A stretch of 20,000 nucleotides of DNA from Chloropicon primus (GCA_023205875.1 CP060756.1:1483777-1503776), one strand, 5' to 3'. Counted from the first letter of the stretch, positions 697-20,000 are shown. Notes: a model not told the origin generated them from the sequence alone. Made by a program: numbers and translations.

Positions 697-1476
697 TCAC
701 CCCCTGCTGAGATCCTCCGAGGCTTGCCTGAGCTTGCCGAGCTCCTCCGGCGTGGCCTCCCCACTCCCCCTCCACCTGACCTTCCCCCCCTTGTCCACCA
801 GGAAGCAGTACGCCGTCAGCCGATTCGAGATGTCCAGGAGTCGCTGGAACTCCCTCAGGTTCCCGAAAGCGGCCATCAGCTTTATGCCACCCACCGCCGA
901 GCCCTGCTCCCTCTTTGCCATCTCCTTCGCCAGGCCTCCGAGGATCACAGACTTGAGCGGGCCTGCCCTGAACAGGAGCGACTCCACGCAGCAGAGCTCC
1001 AGGACCCCGACCTTGGCCTGGCTCGCCCTCGAGGAGGCCAGAAACCCCTCCGTCCAGGTTCTCAGGTGCCCCTTGGCGTTCTCCCGAAAGTACACCCCCA
1101 CGACTGTCCCGGACGACCCCGCTCCACTCTCGTCGGTGAGGAGGCCAGCCACGTCCACCGGGCCCTTGGGGTGAGTGGGGACCGCGAGGCCGGGGTGGCC
1201 CGTCGAGAAGTTGATCGGATGGGCACTCACGTTCCTAGGGAAGTCCTTGGACGTCCTGTGCGACAGGAGGTGGGGCGAGCAAGGGAACACCTTGCCCCCA
1301 GTATCTCGCATCTCATTCAGCTCGAAAAAGTACCCCTTCTGAAGCCTCTTCTTCTCGAGGTGGTCAAAGTGACGCTCCGGGACGCGGCTCAGTCGCAAGG
1401 CCCACCCCATTCGCGCCCCTCGGCCCCCCGGGTCAAGGCCCAGGCGCCTCACCGACCCCCCCAGCGACTGCAGCAT
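697..1476 (-). CDS. ATP10: Mitochondrial ATP synthase assembly factor ATP10-like protein
   Basis: C-terminal N-x-L-T-A-Y-C-F-L-V-D-x-x-G-K-V-R-W-x-G-S-G-x-A-T-x-E-E-L signature, GYFFELNEMRDTGGK motif, and an Arg-rich presequence-like N-terminus. Confidence 0.8.
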   Translation of the reverse strand: MLQSLGGSVRRLGLDPGGRGARMGWALRLSRVPERHFDHLEKKRLQKGYFFELNEMRDTGGKVFPCSPHLLSHRTSKDFPRNVSAHPINFSTGHPGLAVPTHPKGPVDVAGLLTDESGAGSSGTVVGVYFRENAKGHLRTWTEGFLASSRASQAKVGVLELCCVESLLFRAGPLKSVILGGLAKEMAKREQGSAVGGIKLMAAFGNLREFQRLLDISNRLTAYCFLVDKGGKVRWRGSGEATPEELGKLRQASEDLSRG

Positions 1477-1669: not shown

Positions 1670-3406
1670 TCACTCCACTTTCTTGTACAGCTGCCTGTAA
1701 TGGGTTCCCGCCGTGAAGACGTACTTGAGGAAGAAGGCTCCTCCCCCGAAACGGAACAGGGTCGAGGTCAGCATGGAGGCCGAGGAGGCCAGCTTGAAGG
1801 CCGTCGTCTCGCTGCCCTCCACCAGAGGAGAGTGGCAGGCTGGAATCACCTGCATGTGGGTGGCAACCATGCTCGAAATTGTTGAAAGCCAAAGCATCTT
1901 GGTCCAAAATTTGGAAAAGGTCTGGAGATTCAAGCCCGCGGAGAAGTTCTTCTTCAGGTAGTCCTCGAGGTTGTAGATGATGACTCCGACCGCCGCCATG
2001 ATGATGCCGTTGAAAAGGTGGTGCATGTGCAGGAGAATGGCGTACCTGATGTTCACCTGGTGGATGGGAGGGTGCGAGAGCTTCTCCCTGATGCCTCCGA
2101 CGGTGAAGGGGACGATGAGGCCCGCCATCACGGCGTACGCCCAGAAACCACTCACCACGACAACCAGGAGGCCATGGAACACGAAGTTGGTCCTCACGTT
2201 GTTGGCGCAAGTCTCGAAGGGCTTGTACATCACCTTGGGCAGGTGACCGATGACGGTGGCCACGTGGATGTTGGTGTTGATGGCCGTGAAGTTCACCGTG
2301 CAGAAGAAGAAGATCCTGTCGATCAACCATCCCGCCGTTGCGGGCGCGCCCGCGACCAACGTCCAGCTCGGGTGCATGAAGTGCCCACGCATCTTGGAGT
2401 TCATGTAAAACGCGGTGCTGAAGTACGTGAGCTGAACGGAGATGCTGCTGATGGCGTCGAGCTTAGTCCAAAAGGTCGCCTGCGCCTTGCCCTCGCCCTC
2501 ATCCCTCAAGCAAGGGAAGAGCTGGGCCCCCGCGATGACATACAAGGCGTGCATGGCCATCTGGTCGAACGCTTTCGAGTAAACCTTTCTTCGTCCGGGC
2601 ACCATGGGCTCCACGAAGTACTCTCCTGGGGCAGTGGGGTCTGCAATACCGTGGTTGGCAAGAAGCATCCACGCCCCAAAGAGCATGTAGAAGAAGTTCA
2701 CCCAAAAGTAAAGGAACTCTGCGCTGGCCTTCCTGGCCGCCTCCTTGTTCTTGAACTTGCCAACAAAAGGGCCAGTCATGGACCCACCGTTCATGGACAA
2801 GAGCCCCACGAGGGCAAAGACCAAGACGTAGAGGACGTTGGAGAACCAGTACAGAACATCGATATCGGGTGAGGTCGTGTAGCCCTTCGTAAATCCTCTC
2901 TCGGCCCACTCCAAGTTAATCGTCGACCCACCGTTGAGCAAGGTCATGACGATCTGGTGGAGTATCACCCAGACGTGGGAAAGGGGCAGGAGGAAGTACA
3001 CAAGGGAAACCGTCTTGGGGGATGTGGAGCCCTTTCTCAGCGCACTCTCGAGGCAAGCCGGCATCACCGCCAGGTACACAGCCCTGTAAGGGAGCACGTT
3101 GTTTGCAAGATGGGCAATAACAGACTTGCCACCACCTATCACCGTGACCAAGAAGTTCTCGTACTCCTCTTCCCCCGGCGTCTTCACGCCAAACCCCTTG
3201 GCAACCTGAAACAGTGAGGAGGCCAACACAAAGATTGCAGCCCACAAGTAACACCAGATTCTGCCCCTCGAGGCGTCGTTTGGCTTCATCTTGTGCGCCG
3301 TCAGTGGCAAGGCGGTCATCTTGCACCAAAAGGCGTGGTATCCCCAGAAGAACACCACCACCACGCCAATCACAATGAACAAAGAATCCGTCGCAGGACT
3401 CTCCAT
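1670..3406 (-). CDS. 578-aa polytopic membrane protein (stand-alone module B), homologous to the distal part of the fusion membrane domain
   Basis: ATG at 3406 (MESPATDSLF...). The longer 765-aa ORF-track call runs through a microsatellite and the divergent gene. About 12-13 hydrophobic segments, collinear similarity to fusion residues ~280-815, C-terminus KKVE. Confidence 0.75.
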   Translation of the reverse strand: MESPATDSLFIVIGVVVVFFWGYHAFWCKMTALPLTAHKMKPNDASRGRIWCYLWAAIFVLASSLFQVAKGFGVKTPGEEEYENFLVTVIGGGKSVIAHLANNVLPYRAVYLAVMPACLESALRKGSTSPKTVSLVYFLLPLSHVWVILHQIVMTLLNGGSTINLEWAERGFTKGYTTSPDIDVLYWFSNVLYVLVFALVGLLSMNGGSMTGPFVGKFKNKEAARKASAEFLYFWVNFFYMLFGAWMLLANHGIADPTAPGEYFVEPMVPGRRKVYSKAFDQMAMHALYVIAGAQLFPCLRDEGEGKAQATFWTKLDAISSISVQLTYFSTAFYMNSKMRGHFMHPSWTLVAGAPATAGWLIDRIFFFCTVNFTAINTNIHVATVIGHLPKVMYKPFETCANNVRTNFVFHGLLVVVVSGFWAYAVMAGLIVPFTVGGIREKLSHPPIHQVNIRYAILLHMHHLFNGIIMAAVGVIIYNLEDYLKKNFSAGLNLQTFSKFWTKMLWLSTISSMVATHMQVIPACHSPLVEGSETTAFKLASSASMLTSTLFRFGGGAFFLKYVFTAGTHYRQLYKKVE

Positions 3407-3692
3407 CTTGACAATCCTATGCTTGTTTCTCTTTTGTTTCAAGAGAAATGAGAAGAACGAAGGAACAAACGGACGGAAGGACGGAAGGATCAACTGGTTG
3501 CGCGCGTCCTTGTACGGCTGGCCTTGTGCTGCCTCCCGTACGCTCACGCAGTACGACGCGTGGCCCCCGTCTCCCTGTCGTGGTCTCCCTCCCACCTCCC
3601 TTGGTGTGTGGGGGGGCGTTGATTTTTTTTCCCTCCAAGGGATCGGTTCGGCTTTGCGTTTGTGGGGGATATCCACCAGGAGTCCAACAAAC

Positions 3693-3727
3693 GGCTTGGC
3701 TTGGCTTGGCTTGGCTTGGCTTGGCTT
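3693..3727 (+). repeat. (GGCTT)7 microsatellite
   Basis: Seven perfect pentamer copies in the divergent intergenic region. Confidence 0.95.
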
Positions 3728-3796
3728 GGTGCCTGCCTCTACTCTGCCTTCTTGGGGGGGGGCCAAGGCCACAGCACAGACTAAAAGAGACCACTC

Positions 3797-6700
3797 ATGA
3801 AGAAAAGCAACGTGGAGGACAAGGTGGAACCTCCGCAAGTGGACACCATTGCCAACAGAGGGACGCCCAAGATCCTCAGATTTCACGTGCTGCAGGGGTT
3901 CAATTATCTCTTCGCCGGCGCCTACTTTGCCTACCTCGCACTCTACGGGAGCGAGGCCAAGCCACACTACGTGAGCAAGCTATGGATGCAGCTGGAGGAC
4001 CCGCCACTCAACCCTCTGGAGAGGACGCTCCTGGCCATGTTCTGGCTCTGCCCCTCCTGCATCGGGCTTGGGTACCTCCTGATCCCCAAACATCTGGAGA
4101 GCGTGTACGGTTCCTTCTTGACAATGTCAAGTGGGGTCATACTGGCGTTCCGCCTGGCTCTGACGCCGGCCCAGTACCTCACGCTCATTATTTTTCCTGT
4201 GGACTTTGGTGGAATCCTGTACAAGCTGCGGCTGCTGCGAGAGGAGTTCTGGGCCATTCCCAAGGAGTCCAGAAAGATTTTGTGGAACGTTCCTGAGGCT
4301 GCAGACAGGTCGACCATGTCCAGGCTCCTTGAATTCGAGTGTTACTTCTTTGCGGTGTACCTGTACGTGCTGTCCTTTGTGAGCACGGACGTCCTCCTGC
4401 CGGGGTGCAGCGGCACAAGGGTGGCCCCCTTCTCGAAGATCTTCTTCGGCTGCCAGGCGGTGGTCTTCGTGTACGTTGTGCCTGGCTTGAGGCAGGGGAA
4501 GAACCTGGTGGCCTACATGCTCCTCTGCAACAAGGCCATCGTGTCCTGCTTTTTGATCAAGGGCATCTTCTTTGACGGCGTGATTCCCAACACGATGGGC
4601 GCCTGGGTCCTGCTGCCGTACGTGACGACCTTGGCCTTTGAGTTCCACCTGCTCCTGTGGAAGAGAGTGATGCGGTATTCCATATTTTCTCGCTACGTGA
4701 CCAGAAGGCAAGCTTCGAGCGCAAAGTACTTCAGCATGCTGTTCGCCGTGCTCATCGTCACGTTATCCAATACGTGGTACATCTGCACGGGGAGCGGGCT
4801 GGCCTCGATCAGCAAGACGTACGGAAGTTTCCTTGACAGACTGGCTTTCCTTCCCGGCACGGACAAGAACGCGGATAGAGTGCGCTTCCTCGACGCGATG
4901 CTTGCTGGCGTCCTCTTCTTGTTTGTGATAGCGCTGGAGGAGGTGTTGGCGAAGAAGAACACGGCGAGGGTCGTATCCAGGATCCACTTTGTGCTCACCA
5001 TTGGCGCCTTTACCTTTTCCATCATGTTCAAAGTGTTCTGCAATTTGGACGTCAAGTCGAGTTGGCACGGCACCGTGGCTGCCTCTGATCACAGGGTTGG
5101 GATGCATTGCATCTACTGGGTTGTGAACGCGTTCCTGCGCGTGGCGTTTCCCCTTGCTTGCTTGTTCGTTCTCTGCAACGTGGATGGGCCCATCAGCTCT
5201 TGGACGATCTCGATGAAGGGGCCCAAGAAGACAAAGTCCCGCCTCGCGAGCACGATTGTGGTTCAAAACACCGTCAGGACGGCAATCAAGAGGACTATGA
5301 TCTTCCACGGCATGAGCATGATGATGTTTGCCTCTTTGGCCAGCACGCTGTTCACGTCTGGCTTGCCCACCTTCTTCCCCAACGACAGCATTTTTGGTGG
5401 GCACTACATCATCAAGCCCTTGGTGCCTCACAGCGTCGACTCGCAGCGCTCTCTGTTTTACGTCGGTCTTGTGATTGCGTTTGTTACGGTTATCATGGGG
5501 AGCGCCCTGGCGACCATCGACGGCAGGGCACTGCCAGTGGCCCAGTTTTTGAGCGCGGTGTGGCCACTCTCTGCTTGGGCGTTCTTGCTCGATTCCTGGA
5601 TTTCTTTGGCGTATCAGAGGGGCAGCAAGCTCCACCACTACTTTGAACCCCTTTTCAGGGGCTCCATGGTCGTGAACTCCGAGCATATGACCTCCATAGC
5701 GGTGGTGGGCATGGGCACCGCCGCGCTGAGCCTGATGGTTGTGCTCTTCCTGAGGGTGAGGAGCGTCTCCGTGTACAACAGGAAAGTTCAGGCCCCCTCT
5801 GATTTTGCTGAGGAGCTCTCCCACTCGCACAAGCAGTCGTACATCTTCCACAGCAGCGTCCTGGTCTTCTCTGCGAGCGTCTTCATGCTGAGGTCTTGCA
5901 AGTACGCCGACACGAGCAGCGTGGGTGCCATCTTCAAGGATTACTTGTTCGATGACATCGTGGCTTGCCTGACGATGATGAACTTCGGCTTTGTGATTTA
6001 CGAGTGCAAGGAGGGGCTGCATCACCGGAGTTTCTTGTCCAAGGTCACGTCACTGAAAACGGCGTGGATCCTTTCGGGTTACGTGTTGTTTTCGGCCAAC
6101 AAGGCTCTGGGATACTTTGGTTTCTCCGACACGAGGATCGAGATGGTTTACTTGGTTTCGTACGTTGTGTACAACATTGTGATCCAGTTCCAGTCCGCTC
6201 GAGCTGTGGTCGAGGCGATCTACTTCATCCGCCCGAGCTTCAACTCCAACCTTCCTGCGATCCTCAAGTCCTTCAATGCTTTGAGCAGGAGTCAGACAGA
6301 AGATGTGGACACGGGTCTTGTTGGCGTACCGGTGGATGAGGACAATACAATTGTGCCGAAGAATCTGACAAAGGGTAATCCAAACTGGAAGAACAACTGG
6401 AGGAAGTGCTTCGAAAGAGAGTTTGGGGAAAGGACGCTGGCTGACAATGTCAAGACCTGCTTTCCGATCCCTATGCCTGCTGACAAGTCAGGCTTGAACG
6501 CGCTGAAGCGCAAGGCAGTGTTTGGGTCGTGGAAAAAGTACAAGCGCAAGCCCAAGTCTTTTGTCGGAGCCTGTGGCATGTTTGAAGTGATCGAGAACGA
6601 CAAGGTTCCTCCCACAGTTTTTTTTGAGCCAGGAAAGCGATATTATCTTCGATGCAGACATTCGAACGTGACTTGGGACGATGATGCGGGGTTAGACTTT

Positions 6701-9514
6701 CGGGGTGTTGCACTGAAGTTTGGTCACGGAAGACACAAAAGCGACTTTGATTTGCACATGTCAACTGGAGAGATTCCCCCGTTTGTCAACGTCCCAACCA
6801 TGTTGGAGTACATGGGCAACGCAAAGCGCGACTACATGATGAAAAACCCAATGGTTGCGATGGCTGCGATTGAGGGCCAACGTCGGGCCCCCGAGACCTT
6901 TGCGCAGCTTCACTACTACTCCCACTTTTGCAAGAATTTCTGGAGCATCGATGGAATGAAGAGGTACTGCAAGTTCAGGCTCGTGCCGTACGGAGCCGGC
7001 CCCTTCACTGAAGTAGGCCCAGAGGCGTTCAAGCCAAACGCAGAGGACCAGCAGCGCATCTGCCAAAGTCTTGACGCAGATCATGAGAGGCTGCCCGGCG
7101 AGAAGAGGGAGGAGGACTATCTTCGCAAAGAATTCAGAGCGAGGCTTCAGGAGGACGTCGTTCGTTACAGGCTGCAAATTCAGCTTCGCGAGGCCTCTGA
7201 AGTGGAGACCCACGAGGTCTTCAACCCGTGCAAGAGGTGGGACGCACCTTTCTTGGACATCGGCGTAGTCACCCTCTTTGCGCCTCTCGTCGACTACGAG
7301 ACACAGCAAACGGCGTTTGACTACTTCTCTTGGGGGCCGGACTGCTTGTCCCTGATCAAGCCGGTGGGGCTGCTCGACTACAGCTCCATTAATTGGCTCA
7401 GGGAAACGGCGATGAACGGCCAAGGAAAGGCTCCGTGGAGCCTGATGCTCAGGTCCAAGAAGGACAAAGTCTTCAAGAGTCCGTGCAAGTACGTCATCAA
7501 CGTCCACACGTCTCACGTCATGTTCAGCGGCATCGACGGGAACGCGTACGTCACCATCGTGGGCACCAAGGCGTCGACCACGCAGCTTCTCCTTGAGAAC
7601 GGCGGTTACGACTTCGAGGCGGACACCGTGAGCCGGTTCGTGGTGTACGACGAAGATGTGGGCGATCCGTTGTACTGTTTCCTGCACCACGATTCCAACG
7701 AATCTTGGAGGAAGCGCTTGTTGAAGCTGGACTTCTTCGTGGGTTCCAAGTGGAATTGCGGCAAGGTGCAAGTCACGAGCAAGTCCCCGAGGCACGGAAA
7801 GAAGAAGACGACTTTCTTCGTCTGGAAGTGGCTGTCAAAGGGGGAGCTAGCGTTTGCGGTAGCCGACCGAATCCCTGCCACCCCCAAGGCCCAAGCGATC
7901 TCGAGGGAGCTGTTCAAAAAGTACTTCGAGGACAAGCGGAAAAACTACGCGTGGACTTCCGGGCGTTACCTGCCCAACCACTTGACTTGCCCGACCCACG
8001 CGGACCTCCCGGAGGAGGAGCAATTTTCGGTGGTGAAGCACAAGGACTTCCTTGCCATCAGCATGGGGGCGATGCTGAGCCAGAAGCTGGTGAAGACTTA
8101 CTTGCAGGGCGAAAACCTGAAGAGGATAGAGGATTACTACAGCCTCTACGCGACGGAGCAGCCGGGGAAGCACCTTAAGCACTGGTACACCGACGAGGAG
8201 CTGGGAAGGCAGCTGATGAATGGCGTCCATCCTCTCTGGTTCCGCAAGTGCACCGTGATCCCGCGGAAGTTCAAAGTCGACGATGAGACGCTCTCTGGCC
8301 TTCTCCCCCCCGGAAGAACCCTGGCGCAAGAAATGGAAGCGGGCCACATCTTCATTCTGGACTACGAGATCCTCGAGGGGATTTCAACCGCCCCGGGAGC
8401 CTACGTCGCCACCCCGATAGCTCTGCTCTTCGCGAGCGAGGACACCACCTTGCGCCCGATCGCGATACAGCTGAGCCAGAGCGGAGGTCCCGTGTGGACT
8501 CCGAAGGACTCTCCCCTGGAGTGGATCCTGGTCAAGATGCACCTCGTTTCCGCGGACAGCAACTGCCACCAGATGGTCTCCCACTTGTTCGGCACCCACC
8601 TCCTGATGGAGCCCTGGGCCGTCGCCCTGGAGAGAACCCTGTTCAGCGCGCACCCCGTGTACAAGCTGCTGAAGCCTCATTTCATGTACACCATCGGCAT
8701 CAACACCATCGGCAGGACCACCCTCATCCAGCCGGGGGGGATCGTGGACCGAGTTCTTGCCATAGGCGGGGGGGGGCACATCGAGCTGGTCGCGAAAGCG
8801 TACTCGAGATTCAAGCTGGAAGATTTGAACGTCCCGCTCACCCTGGAAAGGAGGGGAGTGGTGGACAAGGCCGTGCTGAAGAATTACTACTGGAGGGACG
8901 ACGCTCTCCTCCTGTGGGGTGCAATCAAAAAGTACGCTCTAGCGGTCCTCGGAGTGCACTACAAGAGCGACCGGGACGTGAAGGGGGACGACCAAGTGCA
9001 GAGCTTCATCAGAGAGATGAGGTACAGGGGCTACGAGGGCGAGGATCCTGATCAGCACGGTGTTCCGCACACCATCACCACCATCGAGCAGCTGGCTGAT
9101 CTGTGTACTTCCCTTCTCTACTGCACCTCGTGCCAGCACGCCGCGGTGAACTTTGCGATGTTCGATTACTACTCCTTCATCCCGAACAGGTGCCTGTGCT
9201 TGCACGGTCCGCCGCCGACGAAAAAGGGAGAGGTGACGGAGGAGTACATCTGCAGCATTCTGCCGAACCTCGAGCAAAGCTCGCTCACGAGCGCGACGGT
9301 GTACGCGCTCTCCAATTTTTCTAGCGAGGAAGTGTTCATAGGGCACTACAAAGTGGACACGATGGACTTCTCGGAGGAGGACAAGGCCACCATGGACTTC
9401 AAGGACGACCTCGAAGGGATCGAGCGCCGTATCCGGGAGAGGAACTCGCGCCTGGGCATTCACGAGTACAAGTACCTGCTTCCCAGCAGGGTCCCTGCGA
9501 ACATTGCCATCTAG
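3797..9514 (+). CDS. Fusion 1 (1905 aa): multi-TM domain + degenerate catalase-related AOS-like domain + PLAT + lipoxygenase
   Basis: Uninterrupted ORF. The catalase-like part (~6380-7450) has RHSN, RRAPETFAQLHYYS, RYCKFR and RYRLQIQL but lacks the heme His/Asn/Tyr. PLAT lies at ~7480-7860. The LOX has HQMVSHLFGTHLLMEP, YYWRDD, QHAAVNF and C-terminal ANIAI. Confidence 0.93.
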   Translation: MKKSNVEDKVEPPQVDTIANRGTPKILRFHVLQGFNYLFAGAYFAYLALYGSEAKPHYVSKLWMQLEDPPLNPLERTLLAMFWLCPSCIGLGYLLIPKHLESVYGSFLTMSSGVILAFRLALTPAQYLTLIIFPVDFGGILYKLRLLREEFWAIPKESRKILWNVPEAADRSTMSRLLEFECYFFAVYLYVLSFVSTDVLLPGCSGTRVAPFSKIFFGCQAVVFVYVVPGLRQGKNLVAYMLLCNKAIVSCFLIKGIFFDGVIPNTMGAWVLLPYVTTLAFEFHLLLWKRVMRYSIFSRYVTRRQASSAKYFSMLFAVLIVTLSNTWYICTGSGLASISKTYGSFLDRLAFLPGTDKNADRVRFLDAMLAGVLFLFVIALEEVLAKKNTARVVSRIHFVLTIGAFTFSIMFKVFCNLDVKSSWHGTVAASDHRVGMHCIYWVVNAFLRVAFPLACLFVLCNVDGPISSWTISMKGPKKTKSRLASTIVVQNTVRTAIKRTMIFHGMSMMMFASLASTLFTSGLPTFFPNDSIFGGHYIIKPLVPHSVDSQRSLFYVGLVIAFVTVIMGSALATIDGRALPVAQFLSAVWPLSAWAFLLDSWISLAYQRGSKLHHYFEPLFRGSMVVNSEHMTSIAVVGMGTAALSLMVVLFLRVRSVSVYNRKVQAPSDFAEELSHSHKQSYIFHSSVLVFSASVFMLRSCKYADTSSVGAIFKDYLFDDIVACLTMMNFGFVIYECKEGLHHRSFLSKVTSLKTAWILSGYVLFSANKALGYFGFSDTRIEMVYLVSYVVYNIVIQFQSARAVVEAIYFIRPSFNSNLPAILKSFNALSRSQTEDVDTGLVGVPVDEDNTIVPKNLTKGNPNWKNNWRKCFEREFGERTLADNVKTCFPIPMPADKSGLNALKRKAVFGSWKKYKRKPKSFVGACGMFEVIENDKVPPTVFFEPGKRYYLRCRHSNVTWDDDAGLDFRGVALKFGHGRHKSDFDLHMSTGEIPPFVNVPTMLEYMGNAKRDYMMKNPMVAMAAIEGQRRAPETFAQLHYYSHFCKNFWSIDGMKRYCKFRLVPYGAGPFTEVGPEAFKPNAEDQQRICQSLDADHERLPGEKREEDYLRKEFRARLQEDVVRYRLQIQLREASEVETHEVFNPCKRWDAPFLDIGVVTLFAPLVDYETQQTAFDYFSWGPDCLSLIKPVGLLDYSSINWLRETAMNGQGKAPWSLMLRSKKDKVFKSPCKYVINVHTSHVMFSGIDGNAYVTIVGTKASTTQLLLENGGYDFEADTVSRFVVYDEDVGDPLYCFLHHDSNESWRKRLLKLDFFVGSKWNCGKVQVTSKSPRHGKKKTTFFVWKWLSKGELAFAVADRIPATPKAQAISRELFKKYFEDKRKNYAWTSGRYLPNHLTCPTHADLPEEEQFSVVKHKDFLAISMGAMLSQKLVKTYLQGENLKRIEDYYSLYATEQPGKHLKHWYTDEELGRQLMNGVHPLWFRKCTVIPRKFKVDDETLSGLLPPGRTLAQEMEAGHIFILDYEILEGISTAPGAYVATPIALLFASEDTTLRPIAIQLSQSGGPVWTPKDSPLEWILVKMHLVSADSNCHQMVSHLFGTHLLMEPWAVALERTLFSAHPVYKLLKPHFMYTIGINTIGRTTLIQPGGIVDRVLAIGGGGHIELVAKAYSRFKLEDLNVPLTLERRGVVDKAVLKNYYWRDDALLLWGAIKKYALAVLGVHYKSDRDVKGDDQVQSFIREMRYRGYEGEDPDQHGVPHTITTIEQLADLCTSLLYCTSCQHAAVNFAMFDYYSFIPNRCLCLHGPPPTKKGEVTEEYICSILPNLEQSSLTSATVYALSNFSSEEVFIGHYKVDTMDFSEEDKATMDFKDDLEGIERRIRERNSRLGIHEYKYLLPSRVPANIAI
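3873..6311 (+). repeat. 2439-bp direct repeat copy 1 (membrane-domain coding region)
   Basis: Matches 11135..13573 at offset 7262. The only difference I noticed is A4865 vs G12127 (K/E). Confidence 0.92.
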
Positions 9515-9521
9515 CCTAGCC

Positions 9522-9522
<1 letters not shown>

Positions 9523-9550
<28 letters not shown>
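9523..9550 (+). repeat. (AG)14 microsatellite
   Basis: Perfect dinucleotide run just after the fusion 1 stop codon. Confidence 0.95.
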
Positions 9551-9556
<6 letters not shown>

Positions 9557-9762
9557 GGCTGGGCGATTTGCGCGCGTTCGCGTCGTGTGTTCACAATTTT
9601 AGTTTTATTGATCATCTTCGTCGTGGGGGGATGTCTCCACCACCCTTTTGTACTTTTACACTTAACGTAACGTAAGACTTATTTGATAACTCCTCCATCA
9701 TCATTATAAATATAAATCCACACTTTACTTTGTGCGTGCAAATCTTTGCGATTGGTTCGCTC

Positions 9763-10650
9763 CTACACCCGCTTCTGCTTCTTCTTGCCAAAGTCCAGGG
9801 CGTGATGCCCGGCCAAGAACAGCAACTCACTGAAAAGGCTCAAGGCGTACGGAAGAAGGACGAAGGAGTACATCGTCCTCGGGACAACCTTATCCACGAA
9901 GACGCCCTTGATCAAAAAGCAGGACACGATGGCCTTGTTGCAGAGGAGCATGTAGGCCACCAGGTTCTTCCCCTGCCTCAAGCCAGGCACAACGTACACG
10001 AAGACCACCGCCTGGCAGCCGAAGAAGATCTTCGAGAAGGGGGCCACCCTTGTGCCGCTGCACCCCGGCAGGAGGACGTCCGTGCTCACAAAGGACAGCA
10101 CGTACAGGTACACCGCAAAGAAGTAACACTCGAATTCAAGGAGCCTGGACATGGTCGACCTGTCTGCAGCCTCAGGAACGTTCCACAAAATCTTTCTGGA
10201 CTCCTTGGGAATGGCCCAGAACTCCTCTCGCAGCAGCCGCAGCTTGTACAGGATTCCACCAAAGTCCACAGGAAAAATAATGAGCGTGAGGTACTGGGCC
10301 GGCGTCAGAGCCAGGCGGAACGCCAGTATGACCCCACTTGACATTGTCAAGAAGGAACCGTACACGCTCTCCAGATGTTTGGGGATCAGGAGGTACCCAA
10401 GCCCGATGCAGGAGGGGCAGAGCCAGAACATGGCCAGGAGCGTCCTCTCCAGAGGGTTGAGTGGCGGGTCCTCCAGCTGCATCCATAGCTTGCTCACGTA
10501 GTGTGGCTTGGCCTCGCTCCCGTAGAGTGCGAGGTAGGCAAAGTAGGCGCCGGCGAAGAGATAATTGAACCCCTGCAGCACGTGAAATCTGAGGAGCTTG
10601 GAAGACTGAGTCTTTGCCAAATGGTCGGGGTCTTTGATTTCGTTCCCCAT
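9763..10650 (-). CDS. 295-aa ~8-TM membrane protein (stand-alone module A), paralog of the fusion N-terminus
   Basis: First 249 codons appear identical to fusion 2, followed by a diverged but still alignable last helix (VVPRTMYSFVLLPY vs VIPNTMGAWVLLPY) and the tail GKKKQKRV-stop. Confidence 0.75.
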   Translation of the reverse strand: MGNEIKDPDHLAKTQSSKLLRFHVLQGFNYLFAGAYFAYLALYGSEAKPHYVSKLWMQLEDPPLNPLERTLLAMFWLCPSCIGLGYLLIPKHLESVYGSFLTMSSGVILAFRLALTPAQYLTLIIFPVDFGGILYKLRLLREEFWAIPKESRKILWNVPEAADRSTMSRLLEFECYFFAVYLYVLSFVSTDVLLPGCSGTRVAPFSKIFFGCQAVVFVYVVPGLRQGKNLVAYMLLCNKAIVSCFLIKGVFVDKVVPRTMYSFVLLPYALSLFSELLFLAGHHALDFGKKKQKRV

Positions 10651-11826
10651 CTTTTGTCTCTCTTTGTGTGTGTGTGAGCCCCTAACCCCCTACTGTCCTG
10701 CACACCCAGGGAGGTGAAAGAGAGGAAAGAGGTGTCCTCCGGAGAGAAAGGTGTTCCCGCGAATTTTGACGATTCCCGCGAATTTTTTTGACGATTCATG
10801 GGACCTCGTCTGTTCATGTGACTCGTCGAACGAGGGTGCTACCCTAGCAACGAAAAAGGTGCGAGTTGTCGGGGAGGAGCGAGGGAAGGGTGTGGGGTGG
10901 ATTGAGGGCGAGGGTAGGGGTCTCAGGCCTCAACGACGAGGACCAACGACACTGTCTGTGGACCAGTGGGATGAAGGTACAGGAGGAGCGAAACCGCTAG
11001 GACAACCAATCACAAGATAAAGGGCAGACCTCTATAAGAGAAAAACAAGCACGCACGCACGCGCAAAGAGAAACAAAAGATGGGGAACGAAATCAAAGAC
11101 CCCGACCATTTGGCAAAGACTCAGTCTTCCAAGCTCCTCAGATTTCACGTGCTGCAGGGGTTCAATTATCTCTTCGCCGGCGCCTACTTTGCCTACCTCG
11201 CACTCTACGGGAGCGAGGCCAAGCCACACTACGTGAGCAAGCTATGGATGCAGCTGGAGGACCCGCCACTCAACCCTCTGGAGAGGACGCTCCTGGCCAT
11301 GTTCTGGCTCTGCCCCTCCTGCATCGGGCTTGGGTACCTCCTGATCCCCAAACATCTGGAGAGCGTGTACGGTTCCTTCTTGACAATGTCAAGTGGGGTC
11401 ATACTGGCGTTCCGCCTGGCTCTGACGCCGGCCCAGTACCTCACGCTCATTATTTTTCCTGTGGACTTTGGTGGAATCCTGTACAAGCTGCGGCTGCTGC
11501 GAGAGGAGTTCTGGGCCATTCCCAAGGAGTCCAGAAAGATTTTGTGGAACGTTCCTGAGGCTGCAGACAGGTCGACCATGTCCAGGCTCCTTGAATTCGA
11601 GTGTTACTTCTTTGCGGTGTACCTGTACGTGCTGTCCTTTGTGAGCACGGACGTCCTCCTGCCGGGGTGCAGCGGCACAAGGGTGGCCCCCTTCTCGAAG
11701 ATCTTCTTCGGCTGCCAGGCGGTGGTCTTCGTGTACGTTGTGCCTGGCTTGAGGCAGGGGAAGAACCTGGTGGCCTACATGCTCCTCTGCAACAAGGCCA
11801 TCGTGTCCTGCTTTTTGATCAAGGGC
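9904..11826. repeat. Long inverted repeat: arms 9904..10666 and 11064..11826, ~397-bp spacer
   Basis: Arms are reverse complements (coordinates sum to 21730). One mismatch seen in the 5' UTR part (10658/11072). Confidence 0.92.
10667..11063. promoter_or_regulatory. Putative bidirectional promoter between the module A gene and fusion 2
   Basis: Head-to-head ATGs at 10650 and 11080. Tandem TTCCCGCGAATTTT(TTT)GACGA at 10754-10797, CCAAT at 11006-11010, TATAA at 11033-11037. Confidence 0.45.
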
Positions 11827-14800
11827 ATCTTCTTTGACGGCGTGATTCCCAACACGATGGGCGCCTGGGTCCTGCTGCCGTACGTGACGACCTTGGCCTT
11901 TGAGTTCCACCTGCTCCTGTGGAAGAGAGTGATGCGGTATTCCATATTTTCTCGCTACGTGACCAGAAGGCAAGCTTCGAGCGCAAAGTACTTCAGCATG
12001 CTGTTCGCCGTGCTCATCGTCACGTTATCCAATACGTGGTACATCTGCACGGGGAGCGGGCTGGCCTCGATCAGCAAGACGTACGGAAGTTTCCTTGACA
12101 GACTGGCTTTCCTTCCCGGCACGGACGAGAACGCGGATAGAGTGCGCTTCCTCGACGCGATGCTTGCTGGCGTCCTCTTCTTGTTTGTGATAGCGCTGGA
12201 GGAGGTGTTGGCGAAGAAGAACACGGCGAGGGTCGTATCCAGGATCCACTTTGTGCTCACCATTGGCGCCTTTACCTTTTCCATCATGTTCAAAGTGTTC
12301 TGCAATTTGGACGTCAAGTCGAGTTGGCACGGCACCGTGGCTGCCTCTGATCACAGGGTTGGGATGCATTGCATCTACTGGGTTGTGAACGCGTTCCTGC
12401 GCGTGGCGTTTCCCCTTGCTTGCTTGTTCGTTCTCTGCAACGTGGATGGGCCCATCAGCTCTTGGACGATCTCGATGAAGGGGCCCAAGAAGACAAAGTC
12501 CCGCCTCGCGAGCACGATTGTGGTTCAAAACACCGTCAGGACGGCAATCAAGAGGACTATGATCTTCCACGGCATGAGCATGATGATGTTTGCCTCTTTG
12601 GCCAGCACGCTGTTCACGTCTGGCTTGCCCACCTTCTTCCCCAACGACAGCATTTTTGGTGGGCACTACATCATCAAGCCCTTGGTGCCTCACAGCGTCG
12701 ACTCGCAGCGCTCTCTGTTTTACGTCGGTCTTGTGATTGCGTTTGTTACGGTTATCATGGGGAGCGCCCTGGCGACCATCGACGGCAGGGCACTGCCAGT
12801 GGCCCAGTTTTTGAGCGCGGTGTGGCCACTCTCTGCTTGGGCGTTCTTGCTCGATTCCTGGATTTCTTTGGCGTATCAGAGGGGCAGCAAGCTCCACCAC
12901 TACTTTGAACCCCTTTTCAGGGGCTCCATGGTCGTGAACTCCGAGCATATGACCTCCATAGCGGTGGTGGGCATGGGCACCGCCGCGCTGAGCCTGATGG
13001 TTGTGCTCTTCCTGAGGGTGAGGAGCGTCTCCGTGTACAACAGGAAAGTTCAGGCCCCCTCTGATTTTGCTGAGGAGCTCTCCCACTCGCACAAGCAGTC
13101 GTACATCTTCCACAGCAGCGTCCTGGTCTTCTCTGCGAGCGTCTTCATGCTGAGGTCTTGCAAGTACGCCGACACGAGCAGCGTGGGTGCCATCTTCAAG
13201 GATTACTTGTTCGATGACATCGTGGCTTGCCTGACGATGATGAACTTCGGCTTTGTGATTTACGAGTGCAAGGAGGGGCTGCATCACCGGAGTTTCTTGT
13301 CCAAGGTCACGTCACTGAAAACGGCGTGGATCCTTTCGGGTTACGTGTTGTTTTCGGCCAACAAGGCTCTGGGATACTTTGGTTTCTCCGACACGAGGAT
13401 CGAGATGGTTTACTTGGTTTCGTACGTTGTGTACAACATTGTGATCCAGTTCCAGTCCGCTCGAGCTGTGGTCGAGGCGATCTACTTCATCCGCCCGAGC
13501 TTCAACTCCAACCTTCCTGCGATCCTCAAGTCCTTCAATGCTTTGAGCAGGAGTCAGACAGAAGATGTGGACATTGCCCTGCTTCAGGTGAATGTTTCCA
13601 GTGCCAAAGCCAAAGATTATTTCACAGGAAAGTTGACAAAGGGTAATCCAAACTGGAAGAACAACTGGGCCAAGCACTACATCGAGAACTTCGGGGAGAA
13701 TGTCTATAATGATGCCACAGCAAAGGAATTTCCTATTCCAATGCCTCCTCCAGATGAATCTGACCTGAAGAAGCAGCAAGGAAAAGCTGCTTTGACGTTC
13801 TTGGTGGCGGCATCAATCTTTCGAAGAAGGCCTACCCACCCCGTGGGCGTTGGTGCTTATGGCATGTTCGAAGTCCTCGACAATGAGAACGTTCCTCCAA
13901 CGGAGTTCTTTGTTCCTGGTAAAATCTTCCACCTTCGTGCAAGGCATTCGAACGGCGTGGGCGTGCAGACAAAGGAGAAGCCAAAGAAATTCGATGACGC
14001 TGCATTGGAGGTCAGGAGTCTTTCCATCAAGCTGGCAAAGGGAAGGGACGACAGCCCATTCGACCTCAATCTGAACACTGGCGAATTTGCGGGCTTTTAC
14101 AACTTGCCCTCTTTCAGGGACTTCGTCTACATGAGCACGATGAATGACCAAAAACTGTTTGACAAGTTTGCTGTGAAGTATCCATCGTGCTTGATGGCAG
14201 AGGTTGATGGCTTCAGGCGCGCCCCAGAAACCTTCGCGCAGCTTCATTACTACTCTCAGACCTGCAGGAGCTTCAACGGCCTGGATGGAAAGAGAAGATA
14301 CTGCAAGTTCAGGGCCGTTCCGTATGGCAAGGGACCTTTCACTGAAGTTGAGGCGGAGCCATTTATGCCTGACGACGACGATCAGAAGCGAATTGTCACA
14401 AAGCCCATGATGTCGCACCACAGGTTGGATGACGAGAAGAGGCCGACGGACTACTTGAGAACTGAGTTCAAGAACAGGGTGACAAACGAGGTCGTGAGGT
14501 ACAGGTTGCAGATCCAGCTGCACGAGTGGCAGGCCAATGACACCGACGAGGTCTTCAATGCAAACAAGGCCTGGGGAACGCCTTTCCACGACATTGGCAT
14601 CATCACCTTGCACACGCCGATGAACGACTACGAGACGGAGCAGACCTCCTTCAACATCGGGAACTGCCCAAGGTGCATCTCTTTGGTGAAGCCCAAGAGC
14701 GCTTTCGATTACCACACCATTAACTGGACAAGAAAGGCGGTGTACGGCAAGTCCTCAAGGATCAGGAGGTACTTCTCGAAGAAGAAGTCTCCTTCCTTTG

Positions 14801-16845
14801 TGAGCCCGTGCCGTTACATCCTGGACTTCCACACCTCCCACGTCGTTTTTAGCGGCATGGATGGTAACGTGCAGGTCACGCTCGTTGGAACCAAGGGCTC
14901 GACGACAGAAATTTTCCTTGAGAACAGCGCCTATGACTTCGAGGTTGACACGGTCAGCAGGTTTGTGGTGTACGACGAGGACATTGGAGATCCCTTGTAC
15001 ATGTTCGTCACTCACGACGCCGACGAGACTTGGAAGAGGAAGCTCTACAACCTCGACTTCATGATACCGAACAAGTGGAACCTCGGCAAGGTCCAGGTCT
15101 CGAGCAAGAGCCCCATATACGGCGACAAGAAGACCAACTTTTACGTCTGGCGCTGGATGAGCAAAGGCGAGCTCGTTTTTGCCATCGCGGACAACATCCC
15201 GGAGGACGACCCCAAGGTGAAGTCCATCCTGCCGCAGCTGCTGGACAAGTACTTCCAGAACAAGAAGTCGATTTACGACTGGAGCTCTGGGGACTATCTG
15301 CCAAACCACTTGTCCGCCAAGGGACACGGCGACCTCCCTGAGGAGGAGCAATTCTCTTCCATGAAGCTCAAGGATTTTGCCGTGTCCGCCATCGAGGGTC
15401 TGAAGAATCAGAAGCTTGTCGGTTTGTACTTCCAAGAAGAGAGCTTCAAGTCCTTGGACGAGTACTACAAGTGCCTGCAGACGCTTCCCCCGTTTCCCCC
15501 CATCGAGAACTGGCACACGGATGAGGAGTTTGGAAGGCAGCTGATGAACGGGACGCATCCTGTCATGTTCATGAGGTGCAGCAAGATCCCGGAAAACTTC
15601 AAGGTCAACGACGTGGTTCTGGAGGGCCTCCTTCCGGCGGGCAAGACCCTGCGGCAGGAGCTGGACGCGGGGCACATCTTCATTATCGACTACAAGGTGC
15701 TGGAGGACATACCTTGCGCGCCCGGTCGGTACTGCTCGTCCGGGCTGGGCCTGCTCCACGCGGACGGGAAGAACTCCTTGAAGCCGATAGCGATCCAGCT
15801 TCACCAGGACGGGGGAGCGATTTGGACTCCCAAGGACAAGCCACTGCAGTGGCTCCTGGCCAAGCTGCACCTTATTTGTGCGGATGGCAACATCCACGAG
15901 ATGGTGACCCACCTCTTCTCCTGCCATCTCGTGATGGAGCCTTGGGCGGTGGCCTTGGAGAGGAATGTGCCCAGCTACCACCCCGTGTTCAGGATGCTGA
16001 AGCCCAACCTGGCTTACACGATCGCGATCAACACGATCGGCAGGAACACCTTGATCGCCAAGGACGGGGTGAGCGACAAGATCCTGTCCATCGGCCAAGG
16101 CGGCCACATCGAGATCATGGCCAAGGCGTACACCTACTTTCAGATGTACCACCTTGACCTGCCCGAGATGCTGGAGAGGAGGGGCGTGATGGACAAGGAC
16201 GTCCTGCCGAGCTACTACTGGAGGGACGACTCCATGGAGATCTGGGGGGCATATCACAAATACGCCAAGGCCGTCCTCACCGCGCACTACGACGGGAAGG
16301 ACTCGGGGGTCAGGCGGGACGCGTTTGTGCAGAACTTGATAAGGGACGTGAAGTTCAACGGGTATTACAACGAGGATCCCGACTACCACGGGGTCCCGGA
16401 CAGCGTGGACACCATAGAGCAGCTGGCGAAGCTCTGCACTTGCGTGCTTTTCCAGACCTCGTGCATGCACGGCTCCGTGAACTTCAGTCAGTACGACTAC
16501 TACTCGTACGTCCCCAACAGGCCCCTGACGATGAGGCAGCCTGTGCCGAGGGAGAAGATCGAGGTGGACGAGGACCTCATCTGCAAGAACCTGCCAGACG
16601 CCAAGGGCTGCGCGAGGAGCATCGCGGCGGTGTGGGCCCTCTCCCAGTTCTCCGACGAGGAGGTCTTCCTGGGTTACTCCAAGATGGTGACCATGGACCT
16701 CCCCTACCAGAAGAGGGCCATCGACGAGTTCAGGAAGGACCTCAAGGCGATCGAGGCCAAGATCGTGGCAAGGAACGAGGGCCTCGGCAAGTTCGGGTAC
16801 ACCTACCTCCAGCCCTCCAGGGTGCCGACCAGCATCGCCATCTGA
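11080..16845 (+). CDS. Fusion 2 (1921 aa): multi-TM domain + intact catalase-related AOS/HPL domain + PLAT + lipoxygenase
   Basis: Uninterrupted ORF. RRPTH (H920), RHSN, LNTGE (N999) and RKAVY (R1218/Y1222) match the coral cAOS motifs as I recall them. PLAT lies at ~14810-15190. The LOX has HEMVTHLFSCHLVMEP, YYWRDD, MHGSVNF and C-terminal TSIAI. Confidence 0.95.
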   Translation: MGNEIKDPDHLAKTQSSKLLRFHVLQGFNYLFAGAYFAYLALYGSEAKPHYVSKLWMQLEDPPLNPLERTLLAMFWLCPSCIGLGYLLIPKHLESVYGSFLTMSSGVILAFRLALTPAQYLTLIIFPVDFGGILYKLRLLREEFWAIPKESRKILWNVPEAADRSTMSRLLEFECYFFAVYLYVLSFVSTDVLLPGCSGTRVAPFSKIFFGCQAVVFVYVVPGLRQGKNLVAYMLLCNKAIVSCFLIKGIFFDGVIPNTMGAWVLLPYVTTLAFEFHLLLWKRVMRYSIFSRYVTRRQASSAKYFSMLFAVLIVTLSNTWYICTGSGLASISKTYGSFLDRLAFLPGTDENADRVRFLDAMLAGVLFLFVIALEEVLAKKNTARVVSRIHFVLTIGAFTFSIMFKVFCNLDVKSSWHGTVAASDHRVGMHCIYWVVNAFLRVAFPLACLFVLCNVDGPISSWTISMKGPKKTKSRLASTIVVQNTVRTAIKRTMIFHGMSMMMFASLASTLFTSGLPTFFPNDSIFGGHYIIKPLVPHSVDSQRSLFYVGLVIAFVTVIMGSALATIDGRALPVAQFLSAVWPLSAWAFLLDSWISLAYQRGSKLHHYFEPLFRGSMVVNSEHMTSIAVVGMGTAALSLMVVLFLRVRSVSVYNRKVQAPSDFAEELSHSHKQSYIFHSSVLVFSASVFMLRSCKYADTSSVGAIFKDYLFDDIVACLTMMNFGFVIYECKEGLHHRSFLSKVTSLKTAWILSGYVLFSANKALGYFGFSDTRIEMVYLVSYVVYNIVIQFQSARAVVEAIYFIRPSFNSNLPAILKSFNALSRSQTEDVDIALLQVNVSSAKAKDYFTGKLTKGNPNWKNNWAKHYIENFGENVYNDATAKEFPIPMPPPDESDLKKQQGKAALTFLVAASIFRRRPTHPVGVGAYGMFEVLDNENVPPTEFFVPGKIFHLRARHSNGVGVQTKEKPKKFDDAALEVRSLSIKLAKGRDDSPFDLNLNTGEFAGFYNLPSFRDFVYMSTMNDQKLFDKFAVKYPSCLMAEVDGFRRAPETFAQLHYYSQTCRSFNGLDGKRRYCKFRAVPYGKGPFTEVEAEPFMPDDDDQKRIVTKPMMSHHRLDDEKRPTDYLRTEFKNRVTNEVVRYRLQIQLHEWQANDTDEVFNANKAWGTPFHDIGIITLHTPMNDYETEQTSFNIGNCPRCISLVKPKSAFDYHTINWTRKAVYGKSSRIRRYFSKKKSPSFVSPCRYILDFHTSHVVFSGMDGNVQVTLVGTKGSTTEIFLENSAYDFEVDTVSRFVVYDEDIGDPLYMFVTHDADETWKRKLYNLDFMIPNKWNLGKVQVSSKSPIYGDKKTNFYVWRWMSKGELVFAIADNIPEDDPKVKSILPQLLDKYFQNKKSIYDWSSGDYLPNHLSAKGHGDLPEEEQFSSMKLKDFAVSAIEGLKNQKLVGLYFQEESFKSLDEYYKCLQTLPPFPPIENWHTDEEFGRQLMNGTHPVMFMRCSKIPENFKVNDVVLEGLLPAGKTLRQELDAGHIFIIDYKVLEDIPCAPGRYCSSGLGLLHADGKNSLKPIAIQLHQDGGAIWTPKDKPLQWLLAKLHLICADGNIHEMVTHLFSCHLVMEPWAVALERNVPSYHPVFRMLKPNLAYTIAINTIGRNTLIAKDGVSDKILSIGQGGHIEIMAKAYTYFQMYHLDLPEMLERRGVMDKDVLPSYYWRDDSMEIWGAYHKYAKAVLTAHYDGKDSGVRRDAFVQNLIRDVKFNGYYNEDPDYHGVPDSVDTIEQLAKLCTCVLFQTSCMHGSVNFSQYDYYSYVPNRPLTMRQPVPREKIEVDEDLICKNLPDAKGCARSIAAVWALSQFSDEEVFLGYSKMVTMDLPYQKRAIDEFRKDLKAIEAKIVARNEGLGKFGYTYLQPSRVPTSIAI
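11135..13573 (+). repeat. 2439-bp direct repeat copy 2
   Basis: Matches 3873..6311; identity ends abruptly after GATGTGGACA. Confidence 0.92.
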
Positions 16846-19194: not shown

Positions 19195-19492
19195 GGTGGC
19201 TTGGATGCACCACGGAAAGCTTGGATGATGCGACTGTGTCTTTCTCTTAGGCTTCTTTTGTTCTCCGGCTCCTTTCCTTGGCCAAGTCGTCCTTCCTTTC
19301 TTCCTCGGGCAAACCCTACTCAAGGCACTTCGGACCCACGAGAGGGCCTTTTAGGCGTTAGGTTTTGGGACTCCCAAGGCTTTAGGAAACGCGGTGGCTT
19401 GGATGCACCACGGAAAGCTTGGATGATGCGACGGTGTCTTTCTCTTAGGCTTCTTTTGTTCTCCGGCTCCTTTCCTTGGCCAGGTCGTCCTT
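19195..19492 (+). repeat. Subtelomeric 100-bp direct repeat (19195..19294 and 19393..19492)
   Basis: Offset 198, two mismatches seen. The spacer contains degenerate telomere motifs (TTTTAGG, TTAGG, TTTTGGG, TTTAGG). Confidence 0.9.
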
Positions 19493-20000
19493 TAGGTTTA
19501 GGCTTTTAGGTTTGTAGGTTGTTAGGTTGTTTAGGTTGTTGGGTTGTTAGGTTGTTAGGTTGTTAGGTTTTAGGTTTAGGTTGTTAGGTTTTAGGTTTTA
19601 GGTTTTAGGTTTTAGGTTTAGGTTTAGGTTTTTAGGTTTTAGGTTTTAGGTTTTAGGTTTTAGGTTTTAGGTTTTAGGTTTTAGGTTTTAGGTTTTAGGT
19701 TTTAGGTTTTAGGTTTTAGGTTTTAGGTTTTAGGTTTTAGGTTTTAGGTTTTAGGTTTTAGGTTTTAGGTTTTAGGTTTTAGGTTTTAGGTTTTAGGTTT
19801 TAGGTTTTAGGTTTTAGGTTTTAGGTTTTAGGTTTTAGGTTTTAGGTTTTTAGGTTTTAGGTTTTAGGTTTTAGGTTTTAGGTTTTAGGTTTTAGGTTTT
19901 GGGTTTTAGGTTTTAGGTTTTAGGTTTTAGGTTTTAGGTTTAGGTTTTGGGTTTTAGGTTTTAGGTTTTTAGGTTTAGGTTTTAGGTTTAGGTTTTAGGA
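19491..20000 (+). repeat. Telomere array (TTTTAGG)n with a proximal variant zone (TTGTTAGG, TTTAGG)
   Basis: About 500 bp of T/G-rich heptamers, with the G-rich strand running 5'->3' to the window end. Confidence 0.96.

Follow-up and report, generated by a model that had tools for sequence, protein, structure and literature searches.

A conserved, apparently unpublished catalase-related AOS/HPL-lipoxygenase fusion with a membrane module in a gene cluster of the green alga Chloropicon primus

The closest described systems are the coral fusions cAOS-8R-LOX and cHPL-LOX (Plexaura homomalla, structures 3dy5 and 1u5u; Capnella imbricata, PMC5617202), in which a catalase-related domain, a PLAT domain and a lipoxygenase follow one another, and the cyanobacterial fusions of Acaryochloris and Anabaena, in which a catalase-related domain is joined to an R-lipoxygenase (PMC11719350, available sections). 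Across the available sections of PMC8511707, PMC11719350 and PMC11507377, fusions of this kind are described from corals and cyanobacteria only, or not at all. The main text of the Chloropicon genome papers does not mention lipoxygenase, allene oxide or oxylipin; as for their supplements, the one file of one set (1/1) held nothing and 12 of the 20 files of another yielded only a lipoxygenase on chromosome 14. No description of a membrane-fused AOS-LOX, or of a cluster such as the one reported here, was found in the full-text literature searched (most subscription papers lie outside it), in agreement with an earlier note on this DNA, which had called the architecture unfamiliar from the literature; public sequence records carry the Chloropicon proteins under the names lipoxygenase or AOS-lipoxygenase. 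Chloropicon and the Mamiellales dominate ocean picophytoplankton, but little is known of the enzymes with which they make oxylipins. In the part available, a 2026 preprint on Ostreococcus mediterraneus ties oxidised galactolipids, including a LOX/HPL-type chain, to virus susceptibility; a single putative LOX is named in it, on the basis of a PLAT domain, and the pathway is described as incomplete. Here we describe a conserved and apparently unpublished form of the catalase-related AOS/HPL-lipoxygenase fusion, located within an algal gene cluster.

The window, i.e., the whole 20,000-nucleotide stretch of C. primus DNA that was analysed, contains a cluster of four open reading frames (C, A, D and B), flanked by the genes for ATP10 and for an aldo-keto reductase. 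HCO and NOR denote heme-copper oxidase and NO reductase, respectively, in the following list of features and throughout.

697-1476, minus strand: ATP10 gene, flanking the cluster
1670..3406, minus strand: gene C, stand-alone membrane protein of 578 aa
3797..9514, plus strand: fusion A, 1905 aa without internal stop; in order, D unit, HCO-like unit, catalase-like domain without heme residues, PLAT domain and lipoxygenase with all iron ligands
3873..6311, plus strand: tract in which A and B (11135-13573) differ at a single base, likely a gene-conversion tract
6386..7480, plus strand: catalase-like domain of A
9763..10650, minus strand: gene D, stand-alone membrane gene, 295 aa
11080..16845, plus strand: fusion B, 1921 aa without internal stop; in order, D unit, HCO-like unit, intact catalase-related AOS/HPL-type domain, PLAT domain and lipoxygenase
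11101..11934, plus strand: D unit of B, aa 8-285
11956..13515, plus strand: C-like unit of B, aa 293-812, predicted HCO/NOR fold
13654..14769, plus strand: catalase-related domain of B, aa 859-1230
14833..15165, plus strand: PLAT domain of B, aa 1252-1362 (Pfam)
15187..16845, plus strand: lipoxygenase catalytic domain of B (Pfam)
17110-18402, plus strand: aldo-keto reductase gene, flanking the cluster
19491..19999, plus strand: TTTTAGG-type telomere repeat array, ~2.6 kb past the end of B

The two head-to-head pairs with stand-alone membrane genes that the earlier note had recognised were found again, C with A across a 390-bp spacer and D with B across a 429-bp spacer, and the subtelomeric site it had proposed is borne out by the telomere array at 19491-19999, the unit of which agrees with the genus Chloropicon (PMC12301720, available part). 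A 100-bp direct repeat (98%; 19195-19294 and 19393-19492) lies immediately ahead of this array. In the cluster (1670-16845), 78-81% of third codon positions are G or C, vs. 86% and 90% in the flanking genes, and the gene order ATP10-C-fusion also occurs in two other loci (L001 and L002). The flanking aldo-keto reductase may be a candidate actor on aldehyde products. Contigs of two presumed-RNA runs cover both flanking genes and leave 1670-16845 almost bare, a pattern that is uninformative either way; one contig of a presumed-RNA run has a 62-base GT..AG gap at 312-373, likely an intron of the gene at the start of the window. One 8-mer is common to three of four spacers; it was counted without a control and is given no weight.

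We hold it highly probable that A and B each encode, in one open frame, a membrane module (~830-850 aa) followed by catalase-like, PLAT and lipoxygenase domains. Both frames run without stops, a Pfam search finds PLAT and Lipoxygenase in both proteins, and B 859-1921 gives a single continuous alignment with coral cAOS-8R-LOX 3dy5 (E = 1.9e-172), B 859-1230 also matching the isolated cAOS domain 1u5u (E = 5e-58). At a Kyte-Doolittle threshold of >= 1.5, each protein has 13 hydrophobic 19-mers ahead of the enzyme part and 0 behind it. The two ~1900-aa ORFs with a hydrophobic region in frame with catalase-like, PLAT and LOX domains, as first read from the DNA in the earlier note, were thus confirmed. 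The AlphaFold2 model of B 1-840 is all-helical, with ~20 membrane-length helices (counted by eye). A differs at 2 residues from an NCBI protein of C. primus that is named lipoxygenase (a second record, on a different contig), and a relative of B in C. roscoffensis carries the record name allene oxide synthase-lipoxygenase; the membrane part goes unmentioned in these public names.

The two fusions differ in the state of their catalase-like domains. B matches coral cAOS at R917, T919, H920, R955, N999, R1218, Y1222 and R1229, and thereby carries equivalents of R64, T66, H67, R102, N137, Y353 and R360 (residue list from the available part of PMC5617202). At R64/T66/H67/N137/Y353/R360, A has K/K/S/S/M/P, while R102 and R349 are kept. 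These substitutions suggest that the catalase-like domain of A is likely a pseudo-enzyme and that only B looks like a complete catalase-AOS/HPL enzyme; of the catalase-AOS/HPL activity ascribed earlier to both fusions, the half that concerns B therefore stands and the half that concerns A does not. Among the 14 enzyme parts compared, H67, N137 and Y353 are kept in 13, with A as the lone exception. The A-type protein in L002 is also without N137 and Y353; the A-type protein of a third lineage keeps both and has Ala at T66.

The lipoxygenase iron ligands (His, His, His, His, Asn) are kept in all 14 enzyme parts; in B they are H1606, H1611, H1616, H1797 and N1801, with a C-terminal Ile. The C-terminal residue is Ile in both A and B and Val in 7 distant fusions. 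At the Coffa site, Gly is found in 14/14 enzyme parts, A and B included, which predicts R-products for all of them, the assignment of this site in these lipoxygenases and the R-product direction of Gly being our assumptions. The Coffa-site stereo switch itself has been described (PMC13319228, available part). Which product the catalase domain of B would make (allene oxide vs. aldehydes) is not readable from sequence, as B-type enzymes have Phe at cAOS position 150, like coral cHPL, a change (L150F) that did not switch the activity of coral cAOS (PMC5617202, available part), and as positions 176-177 of B are unlike either coral enzyme.

Judged by alignment and profile comparison, the fused module is made up of a D unit (~8 helices) and a C homologue (~12 helices), i.e., of the cluster's two stand-alone genes. 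The earlier observation of stand-alone membrane genes in both pairs thus holds and gains in precision, as C and D are the pieces of which the fused module is composed. D corresponds to the first ~270 aa of the module, with 91-97% identity to A and B there, and repeats the beginning of B in inverted orientation (754 identical bases). B 290-830 matches C with a profile probability of 87.7% (E = 3.4e-6), and with 97.4% when distant C homologues are added; reversed or locally shuffled controls gave <= 0.34% in 13 of 13 cases. Profile comparison found no homology between D and C and no internal repeats inside the module or inside D, and Pfam, NCBIfam and PDB sequence searches returned no family for C, D or the module. 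The label TLC, the automatic UniRef name of the C. roscoffensis C homologue, was set aside, as no Pfam TLC row was obtained for 7 members and the modelled fold favours another assignment.

C has no more than two invariant His, H345 and H460. His460 (nt 2027-2029) is invariant in 7/7 homologues and was located by helix counting in the tenth core helix (helix X); His462 is kept in 5/7, as is Asn466, which is replaced in the other 2. Gene C is regarded as a candidate heme enzyme. In the fused unit, Leu and Asp lie opposite the positions of the His460 region of C, no His matches His460, and 0 His are invariant across 10 fusions.

Both C and the C-like unit are predicted to take the 12-helix HCO/NOR fold, in three four-helix arcs. 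The AlphaFold2 models of B 1-840 (mean pLDDT 67.5, pTM 0.68) and of C, modelled separately (mean pLDDT 60.2, pTM 0.71), come from shallow alignments of 18 and 14 sequences, respectively. In the combination of AlphaFold and Foldseek that the earlier note had suggested for each segment, Foldseek gave no match at E <= 0.001 for the module or C models (most top rows for C were HCO/NOR subunits, all above E 0.001), and it was VIA-align that pointed to HCO/NOR (Z 19-21). Specifically, VIA-align matched B 293-812 to cbb3 oxidase/NOR with Z 21.3 (rmsd ~4, 391 residues aligned) and C to cbb3 with Z 19.0 (rmsd 4.9, 410 aligned). When the module model was used as query in an unbiased search of 48,161 chains, without the Foldseek prefilter, the top 10 rows were all HCO/NOR (Z 16.4-21.3; ~390-430 residues aligned; rmsd 4.0-5.3), and the following row, an unrelated fold, had Z 9.8. 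The model of C consists of a 12-helix HCO/NOR-like core and one N-terminal helix. With a low-confidence ESM Atlas model of C as query, no HCO protein was matched (best TM 0.29), a viral structure library gave nothing at E <= 0.001, and sequence searches found no link of C or the module to HCO, styrene oxide isomerase (SOI) or MAPEG. The third four-helix unit aligned with SOI and MAPEG chains at Z 7.7-9.2, amid unrelated helical bundles. The HCO core and the MAPEG trimer have a common topology (PMC4602095, available part), the HCO fold being the one-chain equivalent of the FLAP/MAPEG trimer. The predicted fold points more to MAPEG/SOI-like lipid handling than to a transporter; a shared fold by itself shows no function.

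The system is not confined to this alga, as relatives were found in distant loci and in other protein clusters. With B 1-840 as query, 5 clusters were obtained from 6894 candidates, their lengths all within 1904-1933 aa; with B 855-1400, in a search restricted to proteins of 1056-3362 aa, 14 clusters came from 2767 candidates. Both counts are lower bounds from word-based searches. The same layout, for which the earlier note had proposed to search, is shared by 12 of these 14 long homologue clusters (1904-1976 aa, with 11-17 hydrophobic segments ahead of the catalase domain; A of the window was counted in place of P0002). The other two are the C-terminal piece of a two-part gene call and P0117, a soluble relative without a membrane part. 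P0117, from an MMETSP transcriptome, is a catalase-PLAT-LOX protein of 1084 aa with all catalytic residues present. The two-part call (P0109/P0119) concerns a Chloropicon-like lineage in which several contigs have the B-type gene as two pieces, of 743 + 1182 aa; the break lies inside the HCO-like unit, after helix 10 and before helix 11, and could reflect an intron, a frameshift or a genuine split.

The seven distant fusions make up a clade of their own (100/100); they are missing from the 11 phmmer matches listed for 1.84 billion proteins, and their membrane regions match that of the window by hhalign with 97.8% (E = 7.6e-13, 637 columns). Measured against the A-type gene in L002, the D unit and the C-like unit had dN/dS ratios of 0.25 and 0.22, respectively, and the enzyme parts ratios of 0.14-0.19 (dS of the catalase part is near saturation); these values indicate purifying selection on the membrane module. 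Short-pattern scans with the enzyme alignment confirmed 0 of 92 pattern matches in prokaryote genomes, which leaves room for a bacterial origin, and 0 of 46 and 0 of 63 in viral contigs.

Ten distant metagenome loci (44-49% GC) were found through D; several are near-identical, so that they represent about two gene orders and not ten independent cases. A C homologue is present in 9 of them and a catalase-PLAT-LOX gene in 8, and D-like, C-like and cAOS-PLAT-LOX genes occur together in 8/10; seven loci (L003-L008 and L012) end before the 5' ends of their fusion genes. From their GC content and ankyrin-repeat neighbours we infer that these loci are Bathycoccus-like (Bathycoccus genome traits from the available part of PMC3491373). 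In L009, D is followed by a membrane fusion of 1974 aa, a membrane protein of 399 aa and C. This 399-aa protein (7448-8647, minus strand; also in L011, between fusion and C) is His-rich, has a weak C-terminal EF-hand match, belongs to a cluster of 52 members with no family and is absent from the window. In 7/10 loci (L003 9137-13204, plus strand; also L004-L008 and L012), a 1355-aa protein with Patched/NPC1 sterol-sensing, patatin phospholipase and EF-hand parts is encoded between the C and AOS-LOX genes; the patatin gene is not in the window, and its product could plausibly be a calcium-regulated fatty-acid releasing step. A Class 3 lipase gene (L010 4792-7728, minus strand) lies ~2 kb from the D homologue. 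Directly past the AOS-LOX gene (L003 13444-13578 and equivalents) the 3' end of the C homologue occurs once more as a short copy, which we read as a trace of rearrangement around the patatin gene. A D homologue is also recorded for Picocystis.

Past the module junction, only 45-62% of residues match between A and B. Membrane-region identity is 98.9%, 99.8% and 97.8-99.0% within three lineages and 64-71% between lineages, figures in which the metagenome lineage labels rest on membrane identity itself and some A/B differences may be masked by assembly collapse or polishing. Identity of the enzyme regions is 56-67% for A-A, 76-81% for B-B and 48-54% for A-B comparisons. Membrane regions group by lineage and enzyme regions by paralogue, and in the tree the A-type enzymes are their own clade across species (100/100). 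As modules are near-identical within a lineage and the enzyme parts are old paralogues, the simplest reading is that the gene duplicated long ago and that its module has undergone gene conversion repeatedly since. A fusion in L002 (9983-15708) is A-type to ~nt 14700 and B-type past a frame change, and is either a misassembly or a recombinant of tandem paralogues.

We propose, with a probability of roughly 45%, that A, B, C and D form a membrane-embedded oxylipin assembly line. A lipase would release a polyunsaturated fatty acid, which the His-less fused unit would bind in the bilayer and hand to the tethered lipoxygenase, a presenting role that can be likened to that of FLAP serving 5-lipoxygenase. 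The lipoxygenase would then form an R-hydroperoxide, and the catalase domain of B would turn it into an allene oxide or cleave it to aldehydes. C, with a His-bound heme, would rearrange the reactive intermediate, much as SOI acts on epoxides, and A, without the catalase step, would let go free hydroperoxide. SOI binds its heme via H58 and uses N64 (PMC11374702 and PMC12502698, available parts), and the spacing of H460 and N466 in C equals that of these two residues.

It is also conceivable, but rather unlikely, that the module is itself catalytic, most probably via the D unit, in which case B would be a three-step enzyme, the third step being isomerisation, cyclisation or hydrolysis of the intermediate, and the stand-alone D would add third-step copies. 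Such a role would account for the residues H23-x-x-Q26-G27, R152, E172 and R225, which, like G83, are invariant in 11/11 fused and stand-alone D units that are otherwise only ~17-34% alike, and for the retention of a stand-alone D next to the fusion in loci of both the Chloropicon-like and the Bathycoccus-like type. Conversely, no fold or family was matched for the D unit; its Atlas leads all stay below 0.9, and one of them has Erg28, which is a scaffold and not an enzyme, in 18% of members.

The fused HCO-like unit, with no invariant His in 10 fusions and ~18% identity between lineages (vs. 42-54% for the enzyme part), would suit a module that is an anchor or scaffold only, holding the enzymes at one membrane and recruiting C and D without any lipid handling, and identical modules on A and B would suit such shared assembly. 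We consider this unlikely, however, as ~20 helices are kept where one helix or the PLAT domain could suffice, and as 28 module positions are invariant across 10 distant fusions, in addition to the purifying selection noted above. A module serving to export the oxylipin, or to sense a stimulus that activates the enzyme, possibilities raised in the earlier note, is improbable; while its polytopic nature in cis with the enzyme and the EF-hand membrane proteins within the distant clusters would be compatible with this, no transporter, channel or receptor fold stood out in three structure searches, where the clear match was HCO/NOR. That the fusion is not one protein (splicing, an internal start or an assembly artefact), or that A and D are recent junk duplicates, is very improbable. 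Assemblers may be misled by near-identical repeats, the gene of one lineage is called as two parts and L002 is chimeric at its 3' end; against this, the junction is open in 12 clusters across two deeply split groups, the second C. primus record reproduces A on a different contig, and the A-type clade extends across species under purifying selection.

The proposed assembly line, as predicted from sequence and models, likely makes lipid signals or defences, and the cluster gives candidates for a whole picoalgal oxylipin route. If the proposal is true, it would represent a lipoxygenase as an integral membrane protein, an HCO/MAPEG fold tied directly to lipoxygenase outside animals and a candidate enzyme class for steering allene oxides. 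An intact B and a catalase-dead A on identical modules provide a ready natural comparison. New here are the make-up of the module, its predicted HCO/NOR-like fold, the loss of heme residues in A, the probable gene conversion of the module and the clustering of D, C and fusion genes in Bathycoccus-like contigs. A broader scenario, which we regard as doubtful, would be an old oxylipin cluster of picoplanktonic green algae in which the HCO fold was recruited twice, as a heme-free, fused, built-in FLAP and as the His-heme protein C, a new membrane allene-oxide isomerase/cyclase; signals resembling prostanoids or jasmonates would then be made with neither CYP74 nor the allene oxide cyclase of plants.

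Overall, A and B have the catalase-PLAT-LOX order in common with the coral fusions; B shares their heme residues, and both share their iron ligands and Coffa Gly. Whereas the coral type begins at the catalase domain, A and B have a polytopic region of ~850 aa ahead of it, and the algal locus adds a dead-catalase paralogue (A) and neighbouring dedicated membrane genes. For the cyanobacterial fusions, which were compared by description and not by sequence, no membrane module is described in the available part of PMC11719350. With the HCO/NOR catalytic subunit and HCO-homology proteins, the algal proteins share the predicted 12-helix core over its full length (Z up to 21.3), with the C His in the tenth core helix; they differ in that identity is 6-14%, C has two invariant His (H345 and H460) and the fused unit none, and the fused unit is joined to a lipoxygenase. 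In an active HCO, two hemes and Cu/Fe are bound by six conserved His. Among MAPEG proteins (FLAP, LTC4 synthase, mPGES-1, MGST), MGST1 (Z 8.5), MGST2 (Z 7.7) and 4bpm, which we take to be mPGES-1 (Z 9.1), align with the third four-helix unit of the module, all within a helical-bundle background. MAPEG proteins resemble the HCO core in topology (PMC4602095, available part) and the algal module, as proposed here, in their role beside a lipoxygenase; unlike them, the module is one chain and not a homotrimer, is covalently joined to its enzyme and has no Pfam MAPEG match. SOI differs in having no sequence match to the algal proteins, in its D95, N99 and Y103, for which no equivalents were identified, and in the His that the fused unit is without; nevertheless, its four-helix unit (8pnu) aligns with B 668-803 (Z 9.2, 128/155 residues), and the H-x5-N spacing of its H58/N64 is shared by C.
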